Shown one piece after another: positions 1,349-51,420 of a DNA stretch of 64,000 bases. The notes under the pieces were generated by a model that worked only from the letters and a program-made list of their open reading frames with translations, was not told the origin of the DNA and made no database searches. Within the stretch, counting starts at the first letter, position 1. The number at the start of each line of letters is the position of its first letter. The DNA is from a virus (lineage: Duplodnaviria > Heunggongvirae > Uroviricota > Caudoviricetes): IMG/VR virus record IMGVR_UViG_3300009132_000002; one strand, 5' to 3'. Made by a program: the position numbers and the translations under genes.

Positions 1349-1563
1349 CCAGCCATTTCTTTACAGTCAAATGATGATTTAGAAAGTTGAATCGGAACAC
1401 CGCCTGCTTGAATACAAGCTTGTTGCCAATTCGGTTGTCTATAACTATCATAAACCGCAAACATACCGATACTAATACAAATAAAGATTAATACCGACAT
1501 AGCTATGAAGGAAGCAACTCCTAATTTGTCTACAATCTCTGCAGACATTGTTTGACTAGTCAT
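1339..1563 (-). CDS. small membrane protein (74 aa)
   Basis: ORF track; TM segment VASFIAMSVLIFICISIGMFAV; start/stop coupled to the proteolipid gene upstream. Confidence 0.4.
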   Translation of the reverse strand: MTSQTMSAEIVDKLGVASFIAMSVLIFICISIGMFAVYDSYRQPNWQQACIQAGGVPIQLSKSSFDCKEMAGEK

Positions 1564-1799
1564 TATACAGCAAACATTAACAATAATGCAACAAGGAACG
1601 AAAAGATTCCTAGTGCTTCAGCAAATGCTATACCAACAAACATATTGGCATTTTGTTCTGCTGATCTATGTGGCATAGCCATAGCAGCTTTTAGAAAAGA
1701 ACCTACAACGGTTCCTACTCCAATTGCTGCTAAACCCATGCCCATGCATGCTAATCCAGCACCAATCAATGATCCCATTTGTACGATATCACCGGTCAT
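1563..1799 (-). CDS. F/V-type ATP synthase subunit c-like proteolipid
   Basis: 78 aa with two TM helices. Helix 1 is Gly-rich ([12 protein letters not shown]). Helix 2 carries a conserved acidic residue in [25 protein letters not shown], compare c-subunit VALVEALPIIGVV / AVAESTGIYSLVIALILL. The polar loop is HRSAEQN rather than the canonical RQP. Confidence 0.5.
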
Positions 1800-10337: not shown

Positions 10338-10940
10338 TTATTCCAAAAAATCAGATAGGTCTGAATCTACATTAACGGCTCTTTTCTTTCTGTTTTTCAC
10401 TTCTTTTGAAAAAGTTTTAATTTCTGTATCATAAGCTTTTACTTTATCAATTCTATCTTTAAGGGTATCAATAAAGTGATTAGCAACTTGAGATGATGCA
10501 TCTTGAGAACCAAGTTCTGTAACAAGGAATGCATCTATACCAGATTGAGCAAGATATTTTTCTTTAATATCCTGTTGTTTCTTTTCTTTTGTAATTCTTC
10601 GTAAAAAAGCATACCAAATAATCTGAGTAAAATAAGCAAACGCATTCGGTTTACCTGTTCTAGTTGTAGCATTAATATTATAATTTTCTATAGCCTTTAA
10701 ACAGTTTTCTACAGCATCCATTACCATTTCTTCACGATATGTATATCTGATAAAATTTGACTTATGTGATAAGTTTTCTGCAATTTGTAGAAAGCTACGA
10801 GCAATATAATCTGGAACAACAGGAAGCTTTTCTTCTTTCTGTTTTGCTAAAGTCACTTCTTTCACATATTCCACGATAGCCAATGAAAATTCTGAATTAT
10901 TAATGTAGTGTATGTTTTTTGTTTTTTTTGCTTTTGCCAT
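10338..10940 (-). CDS. late-transcription sigma factor gp55
   Basis: 200 aa, position downstream of gp47 as in T4, basic/helical composition; a sigma70-type early promoter lies upstream. Confidence 0.65.
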   Translation of the reverse strand: MAKAKKTKNIHYINNSEFSLAIVEYVKEVTLAKQKEEKLPVVPDYIARSFLQIAENLSHKSNFIRYTYREEMVMDAVENCLKAIENYNINATTRTGKPNAFAYFTQIIWYAFLRRITKEKKQQDIKEKYLAQSGIDAFLVTELGSQDASSQVANHFIDTLKDRIDKVKAYDTEIKTFSKEVKNRKKRAVNVDSDLSDFLE

Positions 10941-37401: not shown

Positions 37402-38046
37402 TTAGGCTGCTCTCGCAGCCCTAGCACTTTCTAATCTTTCATATGTCTTGAGCCACTGCTCTGGAGATTTAATATGATTACTAATCGTGACTTTAAGTTT
37501 ACGAGCTTTAAACTGGTTCTTTAATTCTTGAGCTTGTTCTCTACCCAAGAAGCGCGACACAAGCTTTAATAAGCAAATACGGAAACCAACATCATGGTGC
37601 ATATAACCTGCACTATGAGCCAATTCATGAAGCATAATATACTCGTTCATACCATTTGAATGAAGGAGGATCTTATGGCCATAAGACACGCCAGCATAAC
37701 GGTATCCACCAAGAGATTCTATCTCAACTTTTTTACGGAATTCGTGACCACTTTCTTTTACTAACTTTTTCCAAGTAGCCGAATTAGTGATTTTGTTTGT
37801 GAATTTTTGACAATCTTTTATTGTCTCAAATCGCTTACCATAACCAAACTTTTTATTATAAGCAAATTCTGCAGAATAAGTTTTTGATCTTTGAGAATCG
37901 GATCCAAGTGTAATTCTTTTTGTACGAATTATTGATTTCTTTTTCGCTTCATATTTAAGATAAGCAGCTATTGCTTCACGCTTCCAGTTTTTCGCTTTAA
38001 GACTATCGAATAGTTCTCTTTGATCTGAAGTAATTACGATTTGCAT
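37402..38046 (-). CDS. putative zinc metallopeptidase (HExxH)
   Basis: MLHELAHSAGYMHHD motif. Confidence 0.4.
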   Translation of the reverse strand: MQIVITSDQRELFDSLKAKNWKREAIAAYLKYEAKKKSIIRTKRITLGSDSQRSKTYSAEFAYNKKFGYGKRFETIKDCQKFTNKITNSATWKKLVKESGHEFRKKVEIESLGGYRYAGVSYGHKILLHSNGMNEYIMLHELAHSAGYMHHDVGFRICLLKLVSRFLGREQAQELKNQFKARKLKVTISNHIKSPEQWLKTYERLESARAARAA

Positions 38047-39056: not shown

Positions 39057-39566
39057 TTACATTCCAACGTCAACCATTACGGTCTGACCAACCCAATGTT
39101 TTTGATTGCTATAAAAATAACCACGTTTATTACCATACTTCCAGTGCACAATTTGTGTTTGTACTTGCTGATTTATTGGTTGATAAACAGTGTTACAAAC
39201 TTGTTGAGATTTATAACCAACGATTTGTCTTGATTGACCACCTTTTGTTGTACTACCAAGAAGACCACCTATAATAGCACCGGGCAAAATACCAGAGTCA
39301 TTACCTTTAGATGTTCCTCCAATTAGACCGCCAATAATTGCTCCAGCAAGAACATTATTATTAACACCTATAGCGTGTTGGTTACGAACTGTTCCATATA
39401 CCGGAACTTGCTGTAAAGAACATTCTTGAACTGGCTCTTGAGTTTGTTGCTGAACATTTACATTTTCTATATACCAAACTTCAGCACCTTGTGTAACAGC
39501 TAAAGCCGCTGAAGCGGTCATAGCAAATACAATTGCAGTTAAAGTTTTTTTCATTTTTTTCTCCAT
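39057..39566 (-). CDS. secreted glycine-zipper (Gly-zipper_Omp / 17-kDa-antigen-like) protein
   Basis: Signal peptide MKKTLTAIVFAMTASAALA; two GAIIGGLIGG-type glycine zippers. Confidence 0.55.
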   Translation of the reverse strand: MEKKMKKTLTAIVFAMTASAALAVTQGAEVWYIENVNVQQQTQEPVQECSLQQVPVYGTVRNQHAIGVNNNVLAGAIIGGLIGGTSKGNDSGILPGAIIGGLLGSTTKGGQSRQIVGYKSQQVCNTVYQPINQQVQTQIVHWKYGNKRGYFYSNQKHWVGQTVMVDVGM

Positions 39567-39609
39567 TAGATTTTACTATTCTAATATATTTTTTGGAAAA
39601 AGTAAACCC

Positions 39610-40104
39610 CTAATTTACACTTTTTCTTCTAATTGCTATTGCCTTTTTAGGATCAAATTTAGCATAGCTTACAGTATTGTCTTGATTTCCACCCAAGATT
39701 ATCCATCTTGTTTTATTTTCATATTGAACTTCTTCTATAAAGAAACCTACATGTCCTTGCCATATTTTATCTCCTCTTGGAAATACTACTATGTCACCTT
39801 TTCTAGGTTTATCTAATACTTCTTCACCCCAAGTTAGAAATGATCTAGCCAAAAGTGGATAATCACTTGTAACTTCAGATCCGGATATTCCTTGCATATC
39901 AAGAACAAAATTAACAAATGCTGCACACCATTGAGTATATACTGGGTCAACACCGACTAATTTTTTTATTTGATTTCTGTCTTTATTTTCATCTAAGCCA
40001 ATATATTGTTCTGCTGGTTTAGATAAATCTTGAAATTCCTCTATAGGTTGACACGCTATAAGAAAACTTAAACAGAAAATTCCTACTGCATTTTTTCTAA
40101 ACAT
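39610..40104 (-). CDS. NlpC/P60 (CHAP-like) peptidoglycan hydrolase lipoprotein
   Basis: Lipobox FLIAC; catalytic Cys in QWCAAFVNFV and His in QGHVGFF. Confidence 0.6.
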   Translation of the reverse strand: MFRKNAVGIFCLSFLIACQPIEEFQDLSKPAEQYIGLDENKDRNQIKKLVGVDPVYTQWCAAFVNFVLDMQGISGSEVTSDYPLLARSFLTWGEEVLDKPRKGDIVVFPRGDKIWQGHVGFFIEEVQYENKTRWIILGGNQDNTVSYAKFDPKKAIAIRRKSVN

Positions 40105-40838
40105 GGCAGATATGCACCCATTGGATGATCACCAATGTTGTCTATTTTGCCTTTCTTTAAGCCCATCCACATGCCCATCAGTCTATCTTTCACTCTTCTC
40201 CAGCCTGTGGCTTTACTATAATCGCCGTGTCTATTAAAATAGTGCATAGTACCATGATGTCTATAACCCATAATCCAAAGAGGAACACGAGTAACTACAT
40301 CATTATTATTTACAAATCTGTGGTGAATCATTCCTAGACTCTTAACATATTTTTTCCAGCCAACTCTTGGCGAACCATATGTGTAAACTTCTACAGGATC
40401 TGCAAGCTTTTCATCGTGAAATGCTCTACTAGCCATAATAGTTGTCATTGCAGCACCTAAACTGTGTCCACAAAACCATAGCTTTTTTCTTACGTTTGTT
40501 TTAACTTCAAGATGTGGTTTTATCATTGGCCATAAATCATCAACTTCGGCTTTAAATCCTTGATGTACTCTGCTTATAGTTTCTGCCATGACAGGTACTG
40601 CTTTTAAATCAGCTTTAACATCATTCCATTGAGTTGGTTCTGTGCCTCTACAAGCAATAACAATGTCATATTTATTCATAAATCTATATGCTTGGGCGCC
40701 ATCTCTATCATAAAATGTTGTTTGATTAAATCCTAAACGTCTTGCAGCTTTCTTCGCTTCTTCAAAAGGTAAATACGATATAGCTGCTAATTTACCAAAT
40801 AATAAACTTCTTTCTTCAAATGATAATCTGGATAGCAT
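40083..40838 (-). CDS. class 3 lipase / alpha-beta hydrolase
   Basis: Nucleophile elbow FCGHSLGAAMTT; late promoter TATAAATA at 40866-40873, 28 nt upstream. Confidence 0.65.
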   Translation of the reverse strand: MLSRLSFEERSLLFGKLAAISYLPFEEAKKAARRLGFNQTTFYDRDGAQAYRFMNKYDIVIACRGTEPTQWNDVKADLKAVPVMAETISRVHQGFKAEVDDLWPMIKPHLEVKTNVRKKLWFCGHSLGAAMTTIMASRAFHDEKLADPVEVYTYGSPRVGWKKYVKSLGMIHHRFVNNNDVVTRVPLWIMGYRHHGTMHYFNRHGDYSKATGWRRVKDRLMGMWMGLKKGKIDNIGDHPMGAYLPCLEKMQ

Positions 40839-40865: not shown

Positions 40866-40873
40866 TATTTATA
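40866..40873 (-). promoter_or_regulatory. T4-type late promoter TATAAATA upstream of the lipase gene
   Basis: 28 nt upstream of the 40838 start. Confidence 0.6.
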
Positions 40874-40876
40874 TAT

Positions 40877-41209
40877 TTAAACTGTTATATCAATAGTTCC
40901 ACCCGAAGGTTTGCCAACTGTTTGTTTGAAATATGCTCTTAATCTTAAATCTTGAATTAAACTTAACCATTTATCCTGTTTATCATAAAATTCTTTCAAT
41001 AAATCTATATTAACTGATGCTCTAGTCGCAGGTTCAACTACTCGTCGAGCTTCTGTTTTTGGTGGTCTAATATTTTCTGCATTTGGAAATGTATTTGCAC
41101 TAAATGGCATATTTTTAGATTTGCCTACTAGTGATTTATCACCTTCGTTCATAGGCATAGAACTATTACTTTGAAATAATTGGGCTTGTTTAAGTATATG
41201 TGTTTCCAT
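40877..41209 (-). CDS. hypothetical late protein (about 110 aa)
   Basis: Start moved to Met15 (METHILK, 'cat' 41207-09) because a late promoter TATAAATA (41236-41243) lies inside the longer ORF. Confidence 0.45.
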   Translation of the reverse strand: METHILKQAQLFQSNSSMPMNEGDKSLVGKSKNMPFSANTFPNAENIRPPKTEARRVVEPATRASVNIDLLKEFYDKQDKWLSLIQDLRLRAYFKQTVGKPSGGTIDITV

Positions 41210-41235: not shown

Positions 41236-41243
41236 TATTTATA
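41236..41243 (-). promoter_or_regulatory. T4-type late promoter TATAAATA
   Basis: 27 nt upstream of Met15 of ORF 40877-41251. Confidence 0.55.
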
Positions 41244-41664: not shown

Positions 41665-41749
41665 TGGTACGCCTGGAGGGCTTCGAACCCCCACTCCTTA
41701 CGGAACTAGATCCTAAATCTAGCGTGTCTGCCTATTCCACCACAGGCGC
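41665..41749 (-). tRNA. tRNA-Leu (anticodon TAG), type II
   Basis: Acceptor GCGCCTG/CAGGCGT, anticodon arm CTAGA-TTTAGGA-TCTAG, T-loop GGTTCGAAG, encoded CCA, long variable arm. Confidence 0.7.
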
Positions 41750-41754
41750 ATATT

Positions 41755-41827
41755 TGGTAGTGTTGGATAGAATCGAACTATCTCTTCAGGCTTATGAGAC
41801 CCGAGTCGGCACCTAACCGCAACACTA
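41755..41827 (-). tRNA. tRNA-Met/Ile2 (anticodon CAT)
   Basis: Acceptor AGTGTTG/CAACACT, T arm GATAG-TTCGATT-CTATC, loop CTCATAA, CCA encoded. Confidence 0.6.
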
Positions 41828-42364
41828 TTTTACTATAAGCTCATCAATATGAACGGGCTTATAATCAGTTTGTTCAACACATACACATTTGTATGGTCCA
41901 TTTGGGCTTGCATTTTGGTGAATATGACCATGAACATTAATTAGGTTATTTTCACCAAATCTATCTTTTTCTCCTAAAGTAGTTGGATGTGCTGGAGTAT
42001 GTGTAAACAATAATCCATGCGGCATATTTTCTAAAAGAAGATGTCTCCATAACGTTACCTTTTTAAAAAAAGGAGCTAACATTTTTATGTTATCGTGGTT
42101 ACCAACAACCAATCTTTTTCGTCCGGGCAACTTTACAAAATTTTCTTCTAGCCACTCTACCTTGTTTAAACCGAAAAGAACATCACCCAAATGATAGATA
42201 ATATCACCGGGTTTGACAGTGTCATTCCAATTGTCTAACATACACTCATTCATTTCATTAACATTAGAAAAATTACGTGTTGGTTTACCAACAGAATCTT
42301 TAAAGGTTAATATGTTTGAATGATTAAAGTGTGTATCACTAATAACCCATATATCTCTATTCAT
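41825..42364 (-). CDS. calcineurin-like metallophosphoesterase
   Basis: ISDTHFNH, LGDVLF, GNHDN, HGHIH motifs. Confidence 0.65.
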   Translation of the reverse strand: MNRDIWVISDTHFNHSNILTFKDSVGKPTRNFSNVNEMNECMLDNWNDTVKPGDIIYHLGDVLFGLNKVEWLEENFVKLPGRKRLVVGNHDNIKMLAPFFKKVTLWRHLLLENMPHGLLFTHTPAHPTTLGEKDRFGENNLINVHGHIHQNASPNGPYKCVCVEQTDYKPVHIDELIVK

Positions 42365-42554
42365 AGTACATTCCTTTATGAATTGGCAACTGAGGCTCTG
42401 TTATTACCTTCTCTGAGAGGGCCAGTCATTTCGCTCTTTACGTCCTTAGAATCGCAGCAAGGACTTCCAACTTATGAAACTAATATACTATAGTTCTTAT
42501 GATAAGTAAATAGATAAAATATGTTTTTACCTTTCTGTGACAAATATGTTACAG

Positions 42555-42989
42555 TCAATGATGATAAGAATTTTTGACTTCAACAAATGCACCATCTTCA
42601 ACTTTAAAGAAATTTGTTGGATGTTTATTAATGTCTCCCGTACAGCGAAAATATGCTCTACCACCATCTAAGGCTATAGTACCAACAGCATGGAAATCGT
42701 GTCTATGTTGACTATAATGCCAACAATCACCCACCTCTTTCATTCCAAACTCAACCTTTTCAATTCTATCAGCATTTGTAATCACCATATCATCATGGTA
42801 CCAATATAAACCAAAATATTTATTTCCAAATTCTGGATGAGGTGTCTCTCTATAAAAAATATCCATCGCTTTGGATTCATAACCGAGAGCGCTTGTACAG
42901 ATATACTTTATTTCAACACCATCTTTTTTAGAATAGTGATCCACAATAGTTGCGGTATTAAAGATAGGTCTATGACAAATATTAAACAT
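42555..42989 (-). CDS. hypothetical His-rich protein, possibly cupin-like
   Basis: Start moved to Met54 (MFNICHRP, RBS AAGGGA) because an early promoter (-35 at about 43044-50) lies inside the longer ORF-track version. Confidence 0.4.
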   Translation of the reverse strand: MFNICHRPIFNTATIVDHYSKKDGVEIKYICTSALGYESKAMDIFYRETPHPEFGNKYFGLYWYHDDMVITNADRIEKVEFGMKEVGDCWHYSQHRHDFHAVGTIALDGGRAYFRCTGDINKHPTNFFKVEDGAFVEVKNSYHH

Positions 42990-43009
42990 GATATTTCCCT
43001 TATTAATCC

Positions 43010-43052
43010 TTTCACTACTAGTATAACATATTTTTTCTAATTTGTAAACCAT
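43010..43052 (-). promoter_or_regulatory. early promoter (GTTTACA-N17-TATACT)
   Basis: Minus strand GGTTTACAAATTAGAAAAAATATGTTATAC. Confidence 0.45.
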
Positions 43053-43070
43053 TTTATGCATTATATTATT

Positions 43071-43146
43071 TGGAGTACGTGACTGGATTCGAACCAGCAT
43101 GATCCGGGGTTGCAATCCGGCGCCTAACCATTCAGTCCACACGCAC
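43071..43146 (-). tRNA. tRNA-Cys (anticodon GCA), tentative
   Basis: Acceptor GTGCGTG/CACGTAC, anticodon loop TTGCAAC, T arm GCTGG-TTCGAAT-CCAGT, CCA encoded; D arm irregular. Confidence 0.45.
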
Positions 43147-43153
43147 ATATTTT

Positions 43154-43230
43154 TGGAGAACCGTCAGGGGTTCGAACCCTGGACCCCCCGATTAAAAGTC
43201 GGGTGCTCTACCAACTGAAGCTAACGGTTC
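43154..43230 (-). tRNA. tRNA-Lys (anticodon TTT)
   Basis: Acceptor GAACCGT/ACGGTTC, loop CTTTTAA, T-loop GGTTCGAAC, CCA. Confidence 0.75.
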
Positions 43231-43237
43231 AATAAAA

Positions 43238-43313
43238 TGGCGGTCTCAGAAGGACTCGAACCTTCAACCTACGGTTTAGAAGACCGTTGCTCTTCCAGTT
43301 GAGCTATGAGACC
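43238..43313 (-). tRNA. tRNA-Arg (anticodon TCT)
   Basis: Acceptor GGTCTCA/TGAGACC, anticodon arm ACGGT-CTTCTAA-ACCGT, T-loop GGTTCGAGT, CCA. Confidence 0.75.
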
Positions 43314-43314
43314 A

Positions 43315-43689
43315 TTATTCTTTTTCATTAAGTGGCTTAAAGCCATCTAATTTTTCTGTTCTTGGTTCTGGTGTTACAATTTCTTTATCAGAACCATATT
43401 GTTGTTTATGAACTACTTCATTATGAATTTGCTTACTATCTACACTGCGTACGATATAGAAACCTTTATTATATGAAGATATAGCAAAAACTAAAAAGGC
43501 TAAACCAACCGCTATTTTAAATGCGATTTTGACCTTCTTTAGTGCTTCAATTCTATCGCCAAAAATTTCGTTTTCAGGCTCTTTCAGGAATCCTCGGCAT
43601 ATAATATATACGCCGAAGATAAACACTAGAGAAATAATAAGTTTAGCAATTGCATATAGAAGTGCAGAAACTAAAAATGTAAACTCCAT
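43315..43689 (-). CDS. membrane protein (124 aa), partner of the SPFH protein (NfeD-like role suspected)
   Basis: Two TM segments; start 8 nt after the SPFH gene stop. Confidence 0.5.
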   Translation of the reverse strand: MEFTFLVSALLYAIAKLIISLVFIFGVYIICRGFLKEPENEIFGDRIEALKKVKIAFKIAVGLAFLVFAISSYNKGFYIVRSVDSKQIHNEVVHKQQYGSDKEIVTPEPRTEKLDGFKPLNEKE

Positions 43690-43696
43690 TTTTCAC

Positions 43697-44611
43697 CTAT
43701 TTTTTGGTTGGATCAGTTAAAGCAATAGCTGTTTCTAATCCTTGTGAACTTAGCATCTCAACTGGAAAGAATACAACATTTTCATTTCCACCTAGAGATT
43801 CAAGAACCTTCAACCGGCGATACTCTAATAGATCTGGAGTTACACCATTTGCAAGAATACGATTAGTTTCTGCAATTGTTTCAGCTTGTAGAATTTCAGC
43901 ATCTCGTTCTGCTCGTTCAACTTCTAGTTGAGCTTGTGCTTCTCGGATCCGAACTTGAGCATCAGCTTCTGCTCTTTCAATTGCAATGGTACGTTCTGCT
44001 GTGGCTTCCATAGCTTCACGTACAACATCTGGAAACTTAATGCTAGCTAAACCAAATTGTTTAACATCAAATGGTGTTCCTGCAAGTGCTTCTTCAACAA
44101 CATTTCTAAGGGATGCTGAGATTGCTGCCTGATTTGCTGCAATTTCTGATGTTGAATATTCTGACAGCTTAGATCGAACAATGTTACGAACAACTGCTTT
44201 ACCATAAACATCATAAATTCGAGCTAAATCAATATACATTTGATTTGTACCATCACGCCGTGAAGGTGATACCCGATCAAATACACCACGGAGAACTTTT
44301 TCATCCTGAGATAAACCTAGTGTAAATCTAACATCAACACTGATAATCAGGTTATCTTTTGGTAATAGGACATCTAAACTTTCCAGCATACCTTCGTCAC
44401 CTGCTTGGATAACAACTAACTTTTCACAGCCAACTGTCCACCACATACATGGCTTAAGTCTAAACGTTGATGGATTAATGACATCGCCAATATAACCATT
44501 AGGTCCAAGAACCATACCTACAGAAGCGGTTGGAACTTGCGCTCTTTCTCCACATGCTGTTAAAGCTAGTACTGATGCAGAAAGTAGAGACATTTTCAAA
44601 TATTTGTTCAT
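43697..44611 (-). CDS. SPFH / band-7 (stomatin-prohibitin-HflK/C) domain lipoprotein
   Basis: Lipobox LTAC after signal peptide; SPFH core; C-terminal Ala/Glu/Arg-rich coiled coil (ERAEADAQVRIREAQAQLEVERAERDAEILQ); strong sigma70 promoter 44660-44689. Confidence 0.7.
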   Translation of the reverse strand: MNKYLKMSLLSASVLALTACGERAQVPTASVGMVLGPNGYIGDVINPSTFRLKPCMWWTVGCEKLVVIQAGDEGMLESLDVLLPKDNLIISVDVRFTLGLSQDEKVLRGVFDRVSPSRRDGTNQMYIDLARIYDVYGKAVVRNIVRSKLSEYSTSEIAANQAAISASLRNVVEEALAGTPFDVKQFGLASIKFPDVVREAMEATAERTIAIERAEADAQVRIREAQAQLEVERAERDAEILQAETIAETNRILANGVTPDLLEYRRLKVLESLGGNENVVFFPVEMLSSQGLETAIALTDPTKK

Positions 44612-44659
44612 TCGAACACAATCATCCTTTTATTGTTTAAAATTTATAATAACTATACA

Positions 44660-44689
44660 ATTATAACATAAAATTTAATAATTGTAAAC
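44660..44689 (-). promoter_or_regulatory. strong sigma70-type promoter (GTTTACA-N17-TATAAT) for the SPFH operon
   Basis: Consensus -35 and -10 with 17-bp spacer; 49 nt upstream of the SPFH start. Confidence 0.6.
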
Positions 44690-44701
44690 CTTTTTTTTTA
44701 T

Positions 44702-44785
44702 TGGTGGGTCGAGCAGGAATCGAACCTGCCGTGCTTTTCAGCGGAGGATTTACAATCCCCTGTCACACCTTGTAACATCCGACCC
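44702..44785 (-). tRNA. tRNA-Tyr (anticodon GTA), type II
   Basis: Acceptor GGGTCGG/TCGACCC, anticodon arm GGGGA-TTGTAAA-TCCTC, T-loop GGTTCGATT, CCA. Confidence 0.7.
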
Positions 44786-44790
44786 AAATC

Positions 44791-44882
44791 TGGAAGAAAG
44801 CGGGTGGTATCGAACCCCAAGGAGCTACTAACCCCTCCACTAGTTTTCAAGACTAGGCTGTAGACCTCTACAGATCACTTTC
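44791..44882 (-). tRNA. tRNA-Ser (anticodon TGA), type II
   Basis: Anticodon arm CTAGT-CTTGAAA-ACTAG, long variable arm, T-loop GGTTCGATA, CCA. Confidence 0.7.
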
Positions 44883-44888
44883 CATATT

Positions 44889-44962
44889 TTGGTTGTCCTA
44901 GAAAGAATCGAACTTACATCTCACGATTATCAGTCGCGTGCTCTACCGTTGAGCTATAGGAC
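44889..44962 (-). tRNA. tRNA-Ile (anticodon GAT)
   Basis: Acceptor TGTCCTA/TAGGACA, D arm GCTC-AACGGTA-GAGC, loop CTGATAA, T-loop AGTTCGATT, CCA. Confidence 0.7.
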
Positions 44963-45377
44963 AATATTTTTTGTGGCGACACCACGGGAAGTTTAACCCG
45001 ACAGCAAATAGCAGTAAAACCAGTAACTGAACGTATGAGGTTCAATTATAAACCACTAGACTCACCACTTCCTAGGCACTGTCATGTTGTTTAACCAACA
45101 AGCTCCTAGCCACGGAAGTCTGATAACACACGTTCACAAATTCTGGTAAATTTGCTTCTATGCTTATCAGTGCCGCATTCGTATATAATTTGGTGCAGCT
45201 TACGGAATCGAACCGGGGTGATCAAGCCCATCTATCTAGAATGCCGTCCAACGGCTTCACTGCACAATTTAGTCAAAAGCAGAACATCAGGTGGGGACTC
45301 ACCCGACCCAATGTCCCAATGTGTTGTCGACAGCGCTTAGCAAATGCCAGTGGGGCAAGCCGACTGCTCTTAAGTTT

Positions 45378-45454
45378 TGGCTCCCTACTGAGGATTCGAA
45401 CCTCAAACACACAGATTAACAGTCTGCCGCCCCTGCCAATAGGGCCCCTAGGGA
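45378..45454 (-). tRNA. tRNA-Asn (anticodon GTT)
   Basis: D stem GCCC/GGGC, anticodon arm GCAGA-CTGTTAA-TCTGT, T arm TGAGG-TTCGAAT-CCTCA, CCA. Confidence 0.65.
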
Positions 45455-46063
45455 ATAATTCTCTTAGCTTTTTGACACGTTATTCCGTTTCATGCCTAAG
45501 TTCTTTTCAGCTAATGACTTTCAAGGTGTGCGTATTATGCGCTGGCCAACTCGGAACCCCGTTCGCACTCATTTGTATTTTCGTCAACACCCAATCTTTT
45601 CTCTTCCCCCTCACACAAGGAACGATGAGTTCGCAATCACGCTTATCATTATTCCTATAAAGAGCAGGTGTGCTGTGATAAAATAGAGTATCAATCCAAA
45701 TCGTGCTACCTCTACACTATAGGAGCCATAGCCCCTAGCAGGGATCGAACCTACGCCTATCCGGAGATGATACTCTACATTATCCTATACACCAGTTAAA
45801 CTTTTTTAACACCGTCGACTGTGTAACTGGATGTTGACGAAAATACAAAACAGTTTGGTTTTCCGTATCACTGGTCACGACACCACAGTATAGAGTTATC
45901 ACATAATTACTTTAGCTGGTTAAGCTTTAGTTGTATATGTATCAACTTGTATATCAAGGGAACTGACGGGACCAACCGCCTTCATCCTATCAAGAACTTA
46001 GTCTATCTCTAGTAACTGTCCATCGCGCAACCATCCACCGCCGTAACACTGGACACGGAAACT

Positions 46064-46139
46064 TGGCTCCCCAGCGAGGATTCGAACCTCGGACCTTCCG
46101 GTTAACAGCCGGCTGCTCTACCACTAAAGCTACTGGGAA
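46064..46139 (-). tRNA. tRNA with anticodon GTT (second Asn-like copy, identity uncertain)
   Basis: Acceptor TTCCCAG/CTGGGGA, D arm GCTT-TAGTGGTA-GAGC, loop CTGTTAA, T arm CGAGG-TTCGAAT-CCTCG, CCA. Confidence 0.5.
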
Positions 46140-46150
46140 AAATTCTTTTT

Positions 46151-46226
46151 TGGCGCTCCCGGAAGGACTCGAACCCTCAACCTCTTAGTTCGTAGCCAAG
46201 TGCTCTTCCAATTGAGCTACGGAAGC
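46151..46226 (-). tRNA. tRNA-Arg (anticodon ACG)
   Basis: Acceptor GCTTCCG/CGGGAGC, anticodon arm CTTGG-CTACGAA-CTAAG, T-loop GGTTCGAGT, CCA. Confidence 0.7.
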
Positions 46227-46235
46227 ATTTATTAT

Positions 46236-46310
46236 TGGTGCTATGGGGAGGGATCGAACCCCCGACACCAGGATCTTCAATCCTGTGTTCTACCTCTGAA
46301 CTACCATAGC
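46236..46310 (-). tRNA. tRNA-Phe (anticodon GAA)
   Basis: Acceptor GCTATGG/CCATAGC, anticodon arm CAGGA-TTGAAGA-TCCTG, T-loop GGTTCGATC, CCA. Confidence 0.75.
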
Positions 46311-46317
46311 GTAATTT

Positions 46318-46393
46318 TGGTACGGGATAAAGGAGTCGAACCTATGACCTTCTGTGTGTAAAACAGCTGCTCTACCAACTGAGCTAATCCCGC
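46318..46393 (-). tRNA. tRNA-Val (anticodon TAC)
   Basis: D arm GCTC-AGTTGGTA-GAGC, anticodon arm CTGT-TTTACAC-ACAG, T-loop GGTTCGACT, CCA. Confidence 0.6.
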
Positions 46394-46466
46394 TCTAATA
46401 GCAAACTTTTTAGAAGGGTAGTCTTTCCCCACTGTTTACCAGATATGTAAACGACTTTTTGTTTCT

Positions 46467-46958
46467 TCATTCTATTAGATTCTTTATATAATCTGTGCGG
46501 CCGTGAGCAACACCATCTGCTCCAAAGCTGGCTGCCCAACTTTCTGGCTTAAGCTTAGGTTCGATCCCTGTCATTCCAAGAACATAACCTGCTGCTTCAC
46601 TGGCCGCACAGTTTGAACCATGACGCGGGTCGGTGTTAATATCAAGATGTATCTCGATATCAAACTCGTCAATAAATGGTCCAATTTGAGTATATAATTC
46701 ACAAACTTTTTGAACTTCTTTCATCATCCGCATTTTGGGACGATTTGCTTTCATATCATAGTCTGGTTCACGTGAAGTATGAGAAAATATTTTACAACCT
46801 TTATTGCCATTTTTATGAATAATAGCAACAGTAGCATATCGAGCCATTTTACGCCCTTTAATATATCTTACTGAATCACAACCAAGATATACCTTTGTGT
46901 TTTCATCACATTCTACTAGTATATCAACCATTTCTTCGATCTGATTTTGTGTAAACAT
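46467..46958 (-). CDS. hypothetical protein (163 aa) embedded in the tRNA island
   Basis: ORF track; flanked by tRNA genes on both sides; possible RNase-H-like fold (speculative). Confidence 0.5.
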   Translation of the reverse strand: MFTQNQIEEMVDILVECDENTKVYLGCDSVRYIKGRKMARYATVAIIHKNGNKGCKIFSHTSREPDYDMKANRPKMRMMKEVQKVCELYTQIGPFIDEFDIEIHLDINTDPRHGSNCAASEAAGYVLGMTGIEPKLKPESWAASFGADGVAHGRTDYIKNLIE

Positions 46959-46993
46959 TTTCTTATTCCATTTATGTGTTACGAATTACTTTT

Positions 46994-47067
46994 TGGATGC
47001 CCGCTGAGGGGTCGAACCTCAATTTCTTGATCCAAAATCAAGCGTCCTGCCATTAGACGACCGGGCA
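46994..47067 (-). tRNA. tRNA-Gln (anticodon TTG)
   Basis: D arm GTCT-AATGGCA-GGAC, anticodon arm CTTGA-TTTTGGA-TCAAG, T arm TGAGG-TTCGACC-CCTCA, CCA. Confidence 0.75.
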
Positions 47068-47070
47068 TTA

Positions 47071-47163
47071 TGGCGGAAGCGCTGAGAGTTGAACTCAATG
47101 GAAGGATCACTCCCACACTTGGTTTAGCAAACCAGTCCTAAGACCACTTAGATTGTCACTTCC
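47071..47163 (-). tRNA. tRNA-Ser (anticodon GCT), type II
   Basis: Acceptor GGAAGTG/CGCTTCC, loop TTGCTAA, long variable arm, T-loop AGTTCAACT, CCA. Confidence 0.6.
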
Positions 47164-47168
47164 ATTTT

Positions 47169-47245
47169 TGGTCAGGGTAAGAGGATTCGAACCCCTGGCT
47201 TCCGCAGCCCAAGTGCGGCGCTCTACCAGACTGAGCTATACCCTG
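47169..47245 (-). tRNA. tRNA-Pro (anticodon TGG)
   Basis: D arm GCTC-AGTCTGGTA-GAGC, anticodon arm CCGCA-CTTGGGC-TGCGG, T-loop GGTTCGAAT, CCA. Confidence 0.75.
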
Positions 47246-47484
47246 AAAATTCTTACGCCGTTTGGATTCGATACCAAATCTCCCCACCCGTGGGGGCGCT
47301 TTATCATAAGCTAACGGCAGCCACTATATCTTTCTTGAATGAGCTCTTTAGACTTTACTCAATATAATGGATTAACTAAAACTAACTTTTATTTTTTGTG
47401 CAGGTCTCTCCCTGCTTGTCACCGTTACCCTTACGGTCTGGGTAGGGTGCGACCCTACGATCCTAACATTCTATTCTATGGTTT

Positions 47485-47560
47485 TGGTCCCATCTTCTGG
47501 ATTTGAACCAGAGCCTTCTGATCCACAATCAGACGTGCTTACCACTAACACTAAGATGGA
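47485..47560 (-). tRNA. tRNA-His (anticodon GTG)
   Basis: Anticodon arm TCTGA-TTGTGGA-TCAGA, T arm TCTGG-TTCAAAT-CCAGA, CCA. Confidence 0.75.
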
Positions 47561-47565
47561 ATAAT

Positions 47566-47640
47566 TGGAGCGGGCAATGAGATTCGAACTCACGACATCG
47601 GACGTGGAAGGACCGCGCTCTACCACTGAGCTACACCCGC
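47566..47640 (-). tRNA. tRNA-Gly (anticodon TCC)
   Basis: Acceptor GCGGGTG/TGCCCGC, D arm GCTC-AGTGGTA-GAGC, loop CTTCCAC, T-loop AGTTCGAAT, CCA. Confidence 0.55.
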
Positions 47641-48084
47641 AATTAATTGGCGACCCGTTAGCTGCACACCGTTGGAATGATGTTCGCAACCCCTATCGTA
47701 ATAGGATTTAATTCTCGCAGTAAAATGCCACGGGTCAACAGCATTGTTTACTGGGTTTTAATGCAGGTCTGAGATTACAACCTGTACAGAAAGTCTTTGG
47801 TCATTACCCTATCCCTTGCGAGGAAGGTTCTACCGTTATCCACTGAGCGCCTTACGGCTATCTCAGTAACTTTCAACGCTGCCTTTTTTAAGGAGTGGCT
47901 TTTCTCCTATCATATGCTGCTATTCATCTATCTATATCCCGTCTGCTTTGCACAGCAGTTCACAATCGCTAAATCGTTACGTTTTCAATTTAAATAACTA
48001 CATTCACCTTGCGGGTTTCAGTAGACCACATTCTTCTAGTGAAGTGTGGTATTAAGCGCCTTTCACAGCATACTGGAACAGTCT

Positions 48085-48159
48085 TTCGCTTTTTTGGTTC
48101 ACAGAGTAGGATTTGAACCTACAACCTATTGTTTTCAAGACAATCGCTCTACCGTTGAG
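48085..48159 (-). tRNA. tRNA-like gene, anticodon TGA on a type-I (short variable arm) body, weak acceptor stem; possible pseudogene or unusual decoder
   Basis: D arm GCTC-AACGGTA-GAGC, anticodon arm ATTGT-CTTGAAA-ACAAT, T arm GTAGG-TTCAAAT-CCTAC, CCA; acceptor TCACTAA vs TCTGTGA has two mismatches. Confidence 0.35.
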
Positions 48160-48630
48160 CTATTAGTGAGAAACCTATTAAGATGCGCTGCTCCAGTTGC
48201 TCCATATTTTGTTAAATACAGAATACAACACACCTTCTGTCTTTTGCCTTGCGGGCTACTTGACGTTACTTCGAGACTATTTCTCTAGTAATGCTATAAC
48301 GCCTTTCTACGCAAATAGTCAGACTATATAACTACCTGTTAGTATTCGACATTCAACGAATTGGTATGTCATAGCAAAACCACCACAGTTTTTTTAATCC
48401 TCAGCGATCGCCTCCGGACCTATCCTTTCGGACTATAACTTCGTTTTACTGCCTACCACCTATTACTAATAGATGGGCTTTCTTTCGGATTGGCATAAAT
48501 GCGTCCGAGTAAAGCTAACCCAGGCTTGTTTAGATGGACTCATATTGAGCGGTGACACTTAGGTATATCACCTTTGGGTGTATTGCTACACTTACCCTTT
48601 TTGTATGGATGCTAAACCACCCAGTAATTT

Positions 48631-48705
48631 TGGTATTCCGTAGGGGAATCGAACCCCTCTTTCCAGGTTGAAAACCTAGCGTCCTAACCGATAGACGAAC
48701 GGAAC
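48631..48705 (-). tRNA. tRNA-Glu (anticodon TTC)
   Basis: Acceptor GTTCCGT/ACGGAAT, loop TTTTCAA, T arm AGGGG-TTCGATT-CCCCT, CCA. Confidence 0.65.
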
Positions 48706-48750
48706 ATTATTTATATTATAGAGATATATTAAACTATTTTTACTAGATTG
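48700..48750 (-). promoter_or_regulatory. early promoter cassette for tRNA transcription; about 55-nt near-identical copy of the 50255 cassette
   Basis: Plus aaactatttttactagattgtaaacccctaaaatgtactttttt. Confidence 0.5.
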
Positions 48751-48783
48751 TAAACCCCTAAAATGTACTTTTTTATTTTTTAT

Positions 48784-48858
48784 TGGAGCGGGTAGTGGGA
48801 CTCGAACCCACGACCTTTTCATTGGCAACGAAATGCTCTACCTCTGAGCTACACCCGC
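48784..48858 (-). tRNA. tRNA-Gly (anticodon GCC)
   Basis: Acceptor GCGGGTG/TACCCGC, D arm GCTC-AGAGGTA-GAGC, anticodon arm TTTCG-TTGCCAA-TGAAA, T-loop GGTTCGAGT, CCA. Confidence 0.75.
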
Positions 48859-48989
48859 AATTTCCTTAATATACATGTTGCTAACAAACCTTGTGACCCG
48901 ATATGTTATTTCAGTCACCGCTTCTAGGTAATATCTAATACTGAAATCAAGTACTTAAAAATCAATATCACGATATACAACATGTATTT

Positions 48990-49064
48990 TGGCGACCATG
49001 ACGGGAATCGAACCCGCTGCGACAGCATAGACAGTGCTGCTTCCCACCATAGGAACCCATGGCC
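48990..49064 (-). tRNA. tRNA-Asp (anticodon GTC)
   Basis: Acceptor GGCCATG/CATGGTC, anticodon arm CAGCA-CTGTCTA-TGCTG, T-loop GGTTCGATT, discriminator G, CCA. Confidence 0.75.
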
Positions 49065-49509
49065 AATTAAATTCAGCTTTAACAAAGATACACTATCTAC
49101 TTCAAAACCAATCTTCAGTTATACAGAACCAACTGTACAGGGCAACTAAACCCTTAGTGTATCTATGATAGAGCATCTAAACTACCCGAACGGCGTATAG
49201 CCTATCCCCGTGCCAGTGGCAAAAATGATAGTGTAGATCCTTATTCGGTCCCATCAAATACGCTCCTACACTTCACGCCCTTTAGATCAGGCACTTTCTT
49301 GGAACGTATATGGTGGAACCGCTAGGTACTGCCTCAACAAAGATACACCACAAATGGTCTAGCCGTTCCACCCGAGGCCTCTAGTGTAGCGGGGTGGTGC
49401 ATCTTTATTGAGGCAGCTAAGTACTGCCTTAAAAAGATAACACTAAGAGCCCATATCTCCGATGAAGGAACGCTCCAAAGGGTGGGAATCGAACCCACTA
49501 GTGTTATTA

Positions 49510-49585
49510 TGGTGGAGAATAGCGGGCTCGAACCGCTGACCCTCTGCTTGCAAAGCAGATGCTCTCCCAACTGAGCTAATTCCCC
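49510..49585 (-). tRNA. tRNA-Ala (anticodon TGC)
   Basis: Acceptor GGGGAAT/ATTCTCC with G3-T70 pair, D arm GCTC-AGTTGGGA-GAGC, anticodon arm TCTGC-TTTGCAA-GCAGA, T-loop GGTTCGAGC, CCA. Confidence 0.75.
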
Positions 49586-49681
49586 ATTACTAAAAACACT
49601 TGCTGGACACCATGTTATCGTTCCAGGTTTACCTTGCGGCTCAGGTGATCCAATCCTTACGGTCTCGGACAAGTGTTATTT

Positions 49682-49757
49682 TGGAGCCCTTGACAGGAAT
49701 CGAACCTGTTATCTTCTGGTTACAAATCAGTTGCTTCGCCAGCAAAGCTTCAAGGGC
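49682..49757 (-). tRNA. tRNA-Thr (anticodon TGT), tentative; anticodon stem weak
   Basis: Acceptor GCCCTTG/CAAGGGC, D arm GCTT-TGCTGGCG-AAGC, loop TTTGTAA, T arm ACAGG-TTCGATT-CCTGT, CCA. Confidence 0.45.
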
Positions 49758-49769
49758 AATTGTAATTCT

Positions 49770-49843
49770 TGGTTGCGCCGGATGGATTTGACACCACCAG
49801 TTCAAGATTATGAGTCTTGCGTGTTACTTGACACTACTGCGCA
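49770..49843 (-). tRNA. tRNA with anticodon CAT (Met, fMet or Ile2), atypical T-loop
   Basis: Anticodon arm CAAGA-CTCATAA-TCTTG, D arm GTGT-CAAGTA-ACAC, T region GGTGG-TGTCAAAT-CCATC, CCA. Confidence 0.55.
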
Positions 49844-49850
49844 TCAATAT

Positions 49851-49932
49851 TGGTGCTAGCGGAAGGAATCGAACCTACTCCCCTTACGGAACCCGTTATG
49901 AGCGGGTGGCCTACCCAATTGGCATCACTAGC
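49851..49932 (-). tRNA. tRNA with anticodon CAT on a type-II-like body (3-bp D stem, 12-nt variable arm); unusual
   Basis: Acceptor GCTAGTG/CGCTAGC, D arm GCC-AATTGGGTA-GGC, anticodon arm ACCCG-CTCATAA-CGGGT, variable TCCGTAAGGGGA, T arm GTAGG-TTCGATT-CCTTC, CCA. Confidence 0.5.
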
Positions 49933-49942
49933 ATATTCTATT

Positions 49943-50027
49943 TGGTGCCTCCACCCAGACTCGAACTGGGACGCCCGAAGGCGGCAAATTTTAAGTCTGC
50001 TGCGTCTACCTATTTCACCATGGAGGC
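49943..50027 (-). tRNA. tRNA-Leu (anticodon TAA), type II
   Basis: Acceptor GCCTCCA/TGGAGGC perfect, anticodon arm GCAGA-CTTAAAA-TTTGC, variable arm hairpin CGCCTTCGGGCG, T arm CCCAG-TTCGAGT-CTGGG, CCA. Confidence 0.7.
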
Positions 50028-50035
50028 ATTATTTT

Positions 50036-50109
50036 TGGCATCGGTAAAAAGAATCGAACTCTTATCTGCGGGGTTGGAAGCCGCCGTGTTACCATTACAC
50101 TACACCGAC
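50036..50109 (-). tRNA. tRNA-Trp (anticodon CCA)
   Basis: D arm GTGT-AATGGTA-ACAC, anticodon arm GCGGC-TTCCAAC-CCCGC, T-loop AGTTCGATT, CCA. Confidence 0.65.
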
Positions 50110-50254
50110 TCTCTGTTTTCAATTACATACTTAGCAAATATGCACGTGAAAACAGAGATATTTTTCTGTTTCCAATCTATTATCGAGTTTCCTCTAAGAT
50201 CAAGCCCAAATTTTCAAATAACGTTGTAACAATTTTCTTTTTTGTTACTATAAA

Positions 50255-50300
50255 GATATACTAAACTATTTTTACTAGATTGTAAACCCCTAAAATGTAC
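50255..50300 (-). promoter_or_regulatory. early promoter cassette at the upstream end of the tRNA island
   Basis: Plus aaactatttttactagattgtaaacccctaaaatgtactttttt. Confidence 0.5.
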
Positions 50301-50325
50301 TTTTTTCACTTTTTTTTATTTTTTG

Positions 50326-50360
50326 CAAAAAAAAATCTCCTCAACTTACGTTGGGAGATT
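50326..50360 (-). terminator. minus-strand intrinsic terminator (AATCTCC / GGAGATT stem, then T9 on the minus strand)
   Basis: Plus caaaaaaaaatctcctcaacttacgttgggagatt. Confidence 0.55.
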
Positions 50361-50600
50361 CGAATGTTTAAAAGTTAATACTTTACTTTATTCGTGTATC
50401 CCCCATTCGGCAATCCCGCGATCTGTCTCAATCATAAACGCATAGCCGCAATTGGTCGCCGGTTTTACCGTCGATAATGGTTGCCATGAATTGAGTCTAT
50501 GTATTGAAAACATTTTTTCTTGTATCTCCTTTGATACTATTATATATACATTTTTTTAGTTATTTTGTACATAATATTATATTTTTTTTTTATTAAATTG

Positions 50601-50858
50601 CTAATAAACTGCTGCCCAAATATCAGCACTAAAGATGCGTAGCCTAGGATACATAGATATAATAATATCACGCGCAGTAATATCATACTTACATTTAAGA
50701 CAACTAATAGGACACTTAAGTATTATATCCTCAAAGACTTCATCTGGACAATTATCAACAGTATAAGGAATTAATAAACACTCTCCTGCTTTAGATTGTT
50801 CAATATTCGCTTCTTCACATTTTGGACATACAATTGTCACTTCATCAAACATACCCAT
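50601..50858 (-). CDS. zinc-ribbon protein (CxxC...CxxC...CxxC), 85 aa
   Basis: IVCPKCEE, CP...CLKCKYDI. Confidence 0.45.
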   Translation of the reverse strand: MGMFDEVTIVCPKCEEANIEQSKAGECLLIPYTVDNCPDEVFEDIILKCPISCLKCKYDITARDIIISMYPRLRIFSADIWAAVY

Positions 50859-51065
50859 TTTAAAATTGCTCCATTAAAGCTTTATTTTTTTCTTGTTAAA
50901 AGATCAAGAACGATAGTCAACTCATATATAGCTTTATCTAAAACTAAGTGAGCAGTTCTATTGTTGTTCTTTTTCTTTTCATCTCGTAGCATCTCTAGTC
51001 TTACTTTTATATATGCCTCTGTTTTATCACGCATATTTTGTATCTTTCTTAATTAACAAAACTTA

Positions 51066-51138
51066 GGCTCCGGCGGTAGGACTCGAACCTACTAGCAGTC
51101 GACTGCAGTCAATTGCTCTAGCCCAGTGCTACGCTGGA
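51066..51138 (-). tRNA. tRNA-like sequence with intact T arm and acceptor but disrupted anticodon arm (probable pseudogene); no CCA
   Basis: T arm GTAGG-TTCGAGT-CCTAC, acceptor TCCAGCG/CGCCGGA with one mismatch; internal direct repeat GACTGCAGTC-GACTGC where the anticodon arm should be. Confidence 0.35.
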
Positions 51139-51343
51139 ATAATTTAGGGTGGAGCCACCACAGTTGGACTCCAGTGTTAGGATTTCGACAAATAGGGTCT
51201 GTTTGCAACCATCCACCTAAAGTGTACCTAACTCTATGCAATTAGATAAATTTTGAAATACACGCGCCTTGATAACCTCTCGGCTCTTGTCCTATGCACA
51301 GGAAAGCAGGTGCATCTACTCCCGCGTGTACATCAAAATTTAT

Positions 51344-51420
51344 TGGCGGTCCCTGCAGGACTCGAACCTGCAACCTACTGCTTAGAAGGCAGTTGCTCTA
51401 TCCAATTGCGCTAAGGAACC
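51344..51420 (-). tRNA. tRNA-Arg (anticodon TCT), second copy with a different body
   Basis: Acceptor GGTTCCT/AGGGACC perfect, D arm GCGC-AATTGGATA-GAGC, anticodon arm ACTGC-CTTCTAA-GCAGT, T arm GCAGG-TTCGAGT-CCTGC, CCA. Confidence 0.7.

Follow-up and report, generated by a model that had tools for sequence, protein, structure and literature searches.

A predicted late lipase and lipoprotein hydrolase gene pair as a candidate accessory lysis unit in an uncultured marine T4-like phage

Introduction

Little is known of how the abundant marine T4-like phages lyse their hosts, and in many of them no lysis genes can be recognised. Three adjacent genes in a 64,000-nucleotide (nt) stretch of the IMG/VR virus record IMGVR_UViG_3300009132_000002, hereafter called the window, bear on this question. 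They encode a class-3 lipase, a predicted peptidoglycan hydrolase with a lipoprotein signal and a putative secreted glycine-zipper protein. An earlier sequence-only reading had described them as a late-expressed trio that might serve as an accessory lysis or outer-membrane-disruption module, and all three open reading frames (ORFs) are indeed present and intact on the minus strand at the positions it had given. Do these genes belong together, and are they likely to act in lysis? From evidence that is genomic throughout, we tentatively propose, at slightly less than an even chance, that the lipase and the hydrolase form a late accessory lysis unit, which would weaken the outer layers of the Gram-negative host at the end of infection.

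Both enzyme families are widespread, with 5,572 metagenomic homologues of the lipase (E <= 1e-5) and more than 2,000 of the lipoprotein hydrolase. If they are lysis factors, the lysis of Gram-negative hosts by phages would gain an enzymatic step directed at lipids, a kind of step that to our knowledge has so far been documented only for LysB of the mycobacteriophages. Lysis cassettes in ocean viromes could then be better annotated, including two small membrane proteins described below (TM95 and TM53), and testable candidates for outer-membrane-active enzymes would be at hand. If they are not, the locus is an ordinary accessory gene cluster.

Results

The lipase and the hydrolase

The lipase gene encodes a lipolytic enzyme of class 3 with, judging by its alignment, an intact set of predicted catalytic residues. 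The protein scored 72.2 bits against Pfam Lipase_3 (PF01764; threshold 22) and matched phrog_21992 (esterase/lipase) at 1.7e-23, and the GHSLG motif by which it had first been recognised constitutes the GXSXG nucleophile elbow. Absence of a Ser-Asp-His triad had been named beforehand as an observation that would refute the initial reading; in our alignment A1, Ser126, Asp180 and His238 are all present and invariant, also in phage lipases of 26-28% identity. Sequence matches in the PDB were fungal lipases (1e-10), and the serine and the aspartate align with those of the Rhizomucor and Thermomyces lipases. The N-terminus is not hydrophobic.

The second gene encodes a protein that scored 85 bits against NCBIfam TIGR02594 (cut-off 70.55) and exceeded the Pfam CHAP cut-off (PF05257) marginally, with 28.5 bits against 26, whereas its score against Pfam NLPC_P60 (PF00877) was 13.4 bits and thus below the cut-off of 23. 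The NlpC/P60 label first attached to it therefore holds only at the superfamily level, and the family is more precisely TIGR02594/CHAP; the predicted catalytic Cys60 and His118 are invariant. A search of the PDB with the sequence gave a single spurious match; the AlphaFold2 (AF2) model had a confidence score (pLDDT) of 86, and its best PDB folds in Foldseek were, weakly, those of CHAP, NlpC/P60 and Tae, a type VI secretion system (T6SS) amidase (E ~0.02). The signal peptide ends in the lipobox L-I-A-C18, which fits the pattern [LVI][ASTVI][GAS]C and predicts a lipidated lipoprotein. This part of the initial description stood up well: C18, like C60, H118, N140 and Q141, is invariant in the 23 homologues of alignment A2. 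Of the 120 closest database homologues, 104 likewise carry a lipobox and are small lipoproteins.

Overlap of the two genes and late transcription

The hydrolase gene starts before the lipase gene ends, the two overlapping by 22 nt. At L039 and L040 (we denote loci of related phages by L and a number) the junction is the same, its ATG lying within the Pro-Cys codons CCATGT, although the flanking genes differ and the identities to the window proteins are 69% for the lipase, 58% for the hydrolase and 46% for the glycine-zipper protein; in the divergent phage L039 the overlap is 25 nt. The lipase and hydrolase genes also overlap in L001-L006, and six close IMG/VR relatives retain all three genes, while a clade at 63% identity combines the lipase with a glycine-zipper gene of lesser length and lacks the hydrolase. 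Because of the overlap and the recurrence of the same junction in a divergent phage, we consider the lipase and hydrolase genes to be probably one late, translationally coupled unit. Since a lipase or glycine-zipper neighbour was found at none of 80 bacterial TIGR02594 loci, the pairing appears to be phage-specific. On the same count, together with identities of at most 50% and an empty single-protein genome scan, we rejected the idea that the pairing arose in bacteria.

The T4-type late promoter motif TATAAATA precedes the lipase gene, and among the proteins encoded in the window is a gp55-like late sigma factor that, by homology, is part of the machinery reading this motif. The promoter had previously been placed 28 nt upstream; it is present, at a spacing of 27 nt. 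In the window as a whole the motif is not enriched in number (15 copies versus 12 expected), but it is in placement. Thirteen of the 15 copies are on the coding strand, and nine of these fall between genes, at 22-69 nt from the start codon that follows, although no more than 16% of the window is non-coding (binomial P = 2.7e-5); the genes preceded in this manner include those for the gp13-like and sheath proteins. The motif is retained 30-41 nt 5' of the lipase gene in L001, L005, L007, L010, L016, L029 and L039, and it persists in clades down to 63% protein identity in which the flanks diverge. The intergenic placement, the gp55-like factor and the upstream conservation together argue that TATAAATA is a real promoter in this phage. 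With both motif and sigma factor at hand, the lipase and, via read-through, the hydrolase are predicted T4-type late genes. Since the first terminator-like hairpin on the coding strand lies 3' of all three genes (Table 1), a late transcript may traverse five further small genes.

Two neighbouring genes were noted at the ends of this segment. The gene next to that of the lipase on the upstream side encodes a 110-amino acid (aa) protein of unassigned function, and its ATG at 41209 is preceded at 26 nt by a second TATAAATA; the TTG start listed for this gene at 41251 is probably wrong, and homology to its positional counterpart in L039 was not demonstrable (E = 0.27). Downstream, a metalloprotease-like protein with an HExxH motif and weak matches to Peptidase_M57 and TIGR04338 ends at the first hairpin, and its gene was found beside g38142 in every lipase-bearing clade examined.

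Both families in lysis cassettes of related phages

Using the hydrolase alignment, we found viral loci that formed 47 clusters at 90% identity, 45 of which were outside the window clade. The hydrolase gene was located near a GH19 + PG_binding_1 endolysin gene (phrog_181, 1.8e-70) in 18 of the 45, and in 16 of those it also followed the gene for an Rz-like inner-membrane spanin (i-spanin; phrog_739, 9e-8), most of the 16 having in addition an overlapping gene for an Rz1-like lipoprotein (o-spanin; phrog_812, 5e-7). TM95, a 95-aa protein with a single transmembrane domain (TMD) and its own TATAAATA, follows in 16 clusters, sometimes together with TM53 (53 aa, two TMDs). The lipase gene appears in the same company: the order is endolysin, i-spanin, o-spanin, hydrolase, TM95 and lipase in L073 and L102, the same with TM53 added in L114, endolysin, spanins, TM95 and lipase in L316 and L325, i-spanin, o-spanin and lipase in L371, and i-spanin, o-spanin, TM95, TM53 and lipase in L020-22, while in L106 and L180 the lipase gene is placed beside TM53 and TM95. 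At least six different gene orders thus place the lipase behind spanins or small membrane proteins, and such varied orders around the same partners represent more than inherited synteny. The lipases of these cassettes are 43-63% and the hydrolases 51-56% identical to those of the window. The recurrence of both families in lysis cassettes of other marine T4-like phages, the lipase in so many arrangements, supports an accessory lysis role. In an incomplete literature search that does not prove novelty, we found no publication describing a class-3 lipase or a TIGR02594 lipoprotein in a lysis cassette of a Gram-negative phage.

TM95, which has a C-terminal helical tail after its TMD, and TM53 had no match in Pfam or PHROG; both are likely holin or antiholin candidates.

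Observations that weigh against a lysis role

Several observations from the relatives point the other way. In 59 of the 80 best lipase loci, all belonging to one abundant lineage, the lipase gene stands alone between genes on the opposite strand, with a ligase-like gene, prs (phosphoribosyl pyrophosphate synthetase) and genes for a PiT-like transporter and UDP-glucose dehydrogenase as neighbours, and 40 of the 46 lipase clusters had none of the tested neighbours. In IMGVR_UViG_3300022922_000873 (112,976 bp) the lipase gene is about 90 kb away from the lysis cassette. Moreover, the placement of the hydrolase gene in cassettes may come from a single ancestral lineage, and the locus counts are not independent.

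The window itself also yields contrary evidence. Family scans of the larger ORFs in the 64 kb revealed no endolysin, holin or spanin, so that the adjacency to such genes seen for both families in relatives is missing here, and a comparison of the window ORFs with the GH19 endolysin, spanins, TM95 and TM53 of the relatives gave a best E value of 0.79. Nor were lysis genes found within 6-8 kb of the three genes in the close relatives, and look-ups of exact protein copies beyond the window gained 1-2 kb with no lysis genes. No PHROG spanin match was obtained in the window, whereas the Rz-like genes of relatives were detected by the same means. To these points may be added that the lipoprotein hydrolase, if exported before the holin is triggered, would have to be kept in check by some factor, for which we identified no candidate, and that a distant homologue of the lipase, ORF279 of the jumbo phage XacN1 (26% identical), was detected in virions by proteomics (PMC5852040).

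Much of this would be expected if the three genes were unrelated accessories that had gathered in the hypervariable stretch from the tRNA block to the structural module, with the lipase serving metabolism as an auxiliary enzyme for the mobilisation of host lipids and the adjacency meaningless. The families are mostly solitary, since both partners were missing within 4 kb at 69 of the 80 loci seeded with the hydrolase and likewise at 69 of the 80 seeded with the glycine-zipper protein; the 59 solitary lipase loci share their context of prs, PiT-like transporter and UDP-glucose dehydrogenase genes, at L019 with a desaturase-like gene and NifU nearby; and the glycine-zipper gene is syntenic with a cluster of GT25 glycosyltransferase genes in many phages without the other two. 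Under such an explanation, however, the lipase-hydrolase overlap would not be expected to survive across divergent phages with different flanks, nor the late promoter to be conserved, nor the lipase gene to adjoin spanin or small-TMD genes in its several orders, and the metabolic neighbours are on the opposite strand. We therefore regard it as unlikely. A search of the literature on phage class-3 lipases as auxiliary metabolic genes, or on phospholipid hydrolysis in connection with T4, gave nothing usable.

The most abundant lipase lineage (flanks of L029/L030, and L019) has in its own right the look of an auxiliary metabolic gene island, comprising prs, the PiT-like transporter, UDP-glucose dehydrogenase and NifU, and at L019 a gene resembling membrane desaturases and alkane hydroxylases (Table 1).

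The XacN1 protein raises another explanation, namely that the lipase is packaged in the virion as an entry enzyme directed at surface lipids or polymers and that its late expression reflects virion assembly. The late promoter and the position of the gene just upstream of the structural module in the window are compatible with this. Yet the coupled hydrolase has a Sec/lipoprotein signal and cannot be packaged, the XacN1 protein is a remote relative, and an association with spanin and small-TMD genes is unexpected for a virion enzyme. We judge a virion lipase to be very unlikely.

The suggestion that the genes might substitute for spanins is not supported by the comparison with relatives: in the informative ones, the lipase and hydrolase coexist with spanins, and neither has spanin anatomy. 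Among the three window genes there is no coiled-coil protein with a TMD, and the lipoprotein is an enzyme. The pairing of the hydrolase with the glycine-zipper protein as spanins was also rejected, as there is no coiled coil, the signal peptide of the latter looks cleavable and its fold is predicted to be beta-rich. A search for defence or anti-defence systems with PADLOC gave no match.

The glycine-zipper gene

The third gene encodes, as originally recognised, a protein with a signal peptide, ending in ...ALA|V, and two glycine zippers; its conserved cysteines are Cys45 and Cys120 (Cys49 and Cys124 when counted from 39566). Translation probably begins at the second ATG (39554), which has GGAG 6 nt before it and was also the choice of metagenome gene callers. 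The assignment to the 17-kDa-antigen/Gly-zipper_Omp type was borne out as a relationship, with scores close to the thresholds, but not as a membership: the protein scored 22.4 against a cut-off of 24.2 for Rick_17kDa_Anti (PF05433), which several homologues carry, and 20 against 25 for Gly-zipper_Omp (PF13488). Its nearest full-length likeness is to YcfJ. Residues 13-151 align with positions 18-155 of the 179 in PRK11280, that is, over the full length, and homologues are named YcfJ in their sources, although the score against the YcfJ equivalog (NF008437/PRK11280) was 31.7 bits versus a cut-off of 99. We thus consider the protein, by profile comparison, a relative of YcfJ and no equivalog. The AF2 model suggests a beta domain built from both chain ends with a low-confidence zipper insert and had no fold match in the PDB; tblastn against isolated phages gave no match.

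This gene appears to be regulated apart from the other two. Before it lies a sigma-70-type promoter (Table 1), of which the -35 element, the 17-nt spacer and the -10 element, often an extended -10, are conserved both within the window clade and in the clade at 63% identity although the flanks have diverged. In many T4-like phages, the YcfJ-like gene occupies a slot between GT25 glycosyltransferase genes and a g38142 homologue without lipase and hydrolase genes, and it was found within 4 kb of a hydrolase or lipase gene in a minority of loci only. No linkage to lysis genes was seen. The trio as one module is not supported; what remains of the late-expressed trio is the late lipase-hydrolase unit, and of the accessory lysis or outer-membrane-disruption module a role that is plausible for these two enzymes, given the relatives' cassettes. 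The third protein is, as far as can be predicted, a separately regulated envelope protein. It may act on the envelope or on the signalling of envelope stress, and a share in the lysis function is not demonstrable for it. We also considered it as an obligate immunity partner of the hydrolase and rejected this, as it was not detected within 4 kb of any hydrolase gene that is part of a lysis cassette.

Such a protein invites an explanation by envelope remodelling or stress control in place of lysis: an early YcfJ-like protein and the hydrolase would alter the periplasm or outer membrane, beside a lipopolysaccharide-glycosyltransferase cluster, and lead to superinfection exclusion, damped stress signalling or the avoidance of premature lysis. 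The conserved sigma-70-type promoter would suit this role, as would the three GT25 glycosyltransferases and the epimerase encoded upstream in the window, which are syntenic with YcfJ-like genes elsewhere. When the envelope of E. coli is damaged, ycfJ ranks with the most strongly induced genes: induction exceeded 100-fold under a LolCDE inhibitor, and colicin M induced the gene as well (PMC5105897, PMC3599342). Against this, the lipase and hydrolase are predicted late genes with relatives in lysis cassettes, a cytoplasmic lipase is unsuited to periplasmic exclusion, no exclusion protein family was matched and the PADLOC search was empty. We hold envelope remodelling as the function of the locus to be distinctly improbable.

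The cluster upstream, a putative lipopolysaccharide/lipooligosaccharide (LPS/LOS)-modifying cluster, consists of three paralogous GT25 glycosyltransferase genes and one for a nucleotide-sugar epimerase. Homologous GT25 clusters adjoin YcfJ-like genes in other marine T4-like phages. In the window, a block of 26 tRNA genes and small ORFs separates the cluster from the three genes; since the two regions are contiguous in tRNA-poor relatives, the separation here is attributed to this block.

The source phage and other features of the window

From its gene content, we assign the window to an uncultured marine T4-like myophage with a Gram-negative host. Scans against PHROG and Pfam identified T4-type structural genes (gp13-, gp14- and gp15-like neck proteins, both terminase subunits, sheath, tube, portal, prohead protease, scaffold and major capsid protein) as well as T4-type replication and regulation genes (gp44/62, gp45, gp46/47, UvsW, UvsY, RegA and the gp55-like late sigma factor). 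For the major capsid protein, identity to isolated phages does not exceed 66%, with Phage C48C1, Pelagibacter phage HTVC008M and OM43 phage Melnitz as the nearest. No close DNA relative among isolated phages was found by megablast and no annotated genome was usable, while marine metagenome contigs carry identical or near-identical copies of window proteins. It is the T4-type gene set, the divergent capsid protein, the lack of an isolated DNA relative and the marine copies that together lead to this assignment. The window represents about one third of a genome of roughly 177 kb, and nearly all its genes are on the minus strand. A candidate for a whole genome of the window clade, IMGVR_UViG_3300047369_000650 (177,535 bp), encodes a lipase 96% identical to that of the window.

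Two further groups of membrane-associated genes were observed. One, located 3' of an Hsp20 gene, encodes a 74-aa protein with one TMD, a 96-aa protein with two TMDs, a 78-aa protein resembling ATP-synthase subunit c (Pfam ATP-synt_C on an identical metagenome copy) and a 67-aa ORF with the internal lipoprotein-type signal MVWTKRIVLWSIFFLLVVVVGC. In the other, a gene for a Band_7/SPFH protein (phrog_200) is followed by one for a 124-aa protein with two TMDs, an SPFH-NfeD-like arrangement in which NfeD was recognised by eye.

Table 1. Positions of the genes and signals discussed, in window coordinates unless a locus of a related phage is named
Feature	Coordinates	Strand	Basis
Class-3 lipase, 251 aa, no signal peptide; Ser126 (in GHSLG)/Asp180/His238	40083..40838	-	Lipase_3 match, alignment A1
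Predicted TIGR02594/CHAP peptidoglycan hydrolase lipoprotein, 164 aa; LIAC18, Gln at +2; Cys60/His118, Asn140/Gln141	39610..40104	-	profiles, alignment A2
Predicted secreted YcfJ-like double glycine-zipper protein, 165 aa from second ATG (listed ORF start 39566)	39057..39554	-	profiles, alignment, AF2
22-nt overlap of lipase gene end and hydrolase gene start, probable translational coupling	40083..40104	-	sequence and relatives
T4-type late promoter TATAAATA, 27 nt 5' of lipase ATG	40866..40873	-	motif, kept in relatives
Sigma-70-type promoter TTTACT-N17-TAGAAT before glycine-zipper gene	39578..39606	-	motif, kept in clades
gp55-like late sigma factor	10338..10940	-	phrog_234 late sigma transcription factor, 1.5e-49
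First terminator-like hairpin, coding strand, 3' of the three genes	37404..37421	-	sequence
Second TATAAATA	41236-41243	-	
110-aa protein of unassigned function	40877-41209	-	
HExxH metalloprotease-like protein	37402-38046	-	weak Peptidase_M57 and TIGR04338 matches
tRNA block	41665-51420		
Three GT25 glycosyltransferases and nucleotide-sugar epimerase	54576-55229, 56572-57270, 57815-58498, 62022-63167	-	
Band_7/SPFH protein	43697-44611	-	phrog_200
124-aa two-TMD protein	43315-43689	-	
Small membrane-protein cluster	301-1799	-	
TM95/TM53 loci in related phages	L073 4476-4763; L114 4471-4632, 4660-4971; L020 1033-1439; L106 6790-7289; L180 6858-7315		
Membrane desaturase/alkane-hydroxylase-like gene in a related phage	L019 9666-10688		

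Discussion

A possible course of events

If the lipase-hydrolase pair is an accessory lysis unit, its two products would work from different compartments. After export by Sec and lipidation, the hydrolase would be targeted to the outer membrane and reside on its inner face, a destination suggested by the Gln rather than Asp at position +2 if the E. coli rule applies. Anchored there, it might cut peptidoglycan peptides, or the tethers between peptidoglycan and the outer membrane, near that membrane and from the outer side. The lipase, which has no export signal, would on that account be expected to wait in the cytoplasm, accumulating like a canonical endolysin or LysB until holin lesions gave it access to membrane lipids, where it could hydrolyse acyl esters of phospholipids or lipoproteins and hasten the failure of the outer membrane. 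The YcfJ-like protein would be expressed from its own sigma-70-type promoter, with a contribution from late read-through.

A more far-reaching proposal is that the lipase and the outer-membrane-anchored hydrolase constitute an enzymatic route of outer-membrane disruption, a Gram-negative counterpart of LysB and a further class of last-step system beside the spanins and disruptin, which might even replace spanins in the lineage of the window, where none were seen. We consider this improbable.

Comparison with known systems

The nearest functional parallel is LysB of the mycobacteriophages, a serine (GXSXG) lipolytic enzyme without a signal peptide, which is encoded in the lysis cassette and is thought to act on the outer lipid layer after holin and endolysin. 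The lipase described here shares this logic and, in relatives, the kind of gene position. LysB is a cutinase-like alpha/beta-hydrolase that cuts the mycolyl-arabinogalactan ester of mycobacteria, whereas the lipase of the window is a predicted enzyme of class 3, belongs to marine phages of Gram-negative hosts and coexists with spanins in relatives. The lipase-hydrolase pair would resemble LysB with an extra muralytic enzyme, assembled from different protein families.

With the spanins, such as Rz/Rz1 of lambda and PseT.3/PseT.2 of T4, the pair has in common one outer-membrane lipoprotein, overlapping genes and, as proposed here, a last step of outer-membrane disruption. Unlike in the spanins, the lipoprotein bears an enzyme domain and the upstream partner is a predicted cytoplasmic lipase instead of an inner-membrane coiled-coil protein, while the glycine-zipper protein is modelled as beta-rich with a cleavable signal peptide. 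Furthermore, relatives have true Rz-like and Rz1-like genes beside the lipase or hydrolase gene.

The catalytic domain of the hydrolase is that of tail lysins, endolysins and T6SS effectors: it matches phrog_1259 (C-terminus of baseplate hub and tail lysozyme; 1.2e-20) and is matched by phage tape-measure and hub proteins at 35-45% identity, and T6SS effectors with TIGR02594 have been described (PMC13055248). The difference is that in the window protein this domain is the only one and follows a lipoprotein signal, a form that is abundant in marine viral metagenomes, and that it would be anchored in the host's own outer membrane from within, in contrast to delivery from outside.

The glycine-zipper protein shares with YcfJ of E. 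coli (PRK11280) and other glycine-zipper 2TM proteins, for example SlyB, the succession of a signal peptide, a beta segment with a cysteine, a double zipper and a C-terminal beta segment with a second cysteine. It differs in being phage-encoded, in its identity of about 30-38% to bacterial members and in its score of less than one third of the equivalog cut-off.

Finally, in T4-infected E. coli, classical observations revealed a late hydrolysis of phospholipids through activation of a host phospholipase. Lipid hydrolysis would thus stand at the end of the T4-type infection in both cases, the difference being that T4 uses the enzyme of its host whereas the phage of the window is predicted to carry its own lipase.

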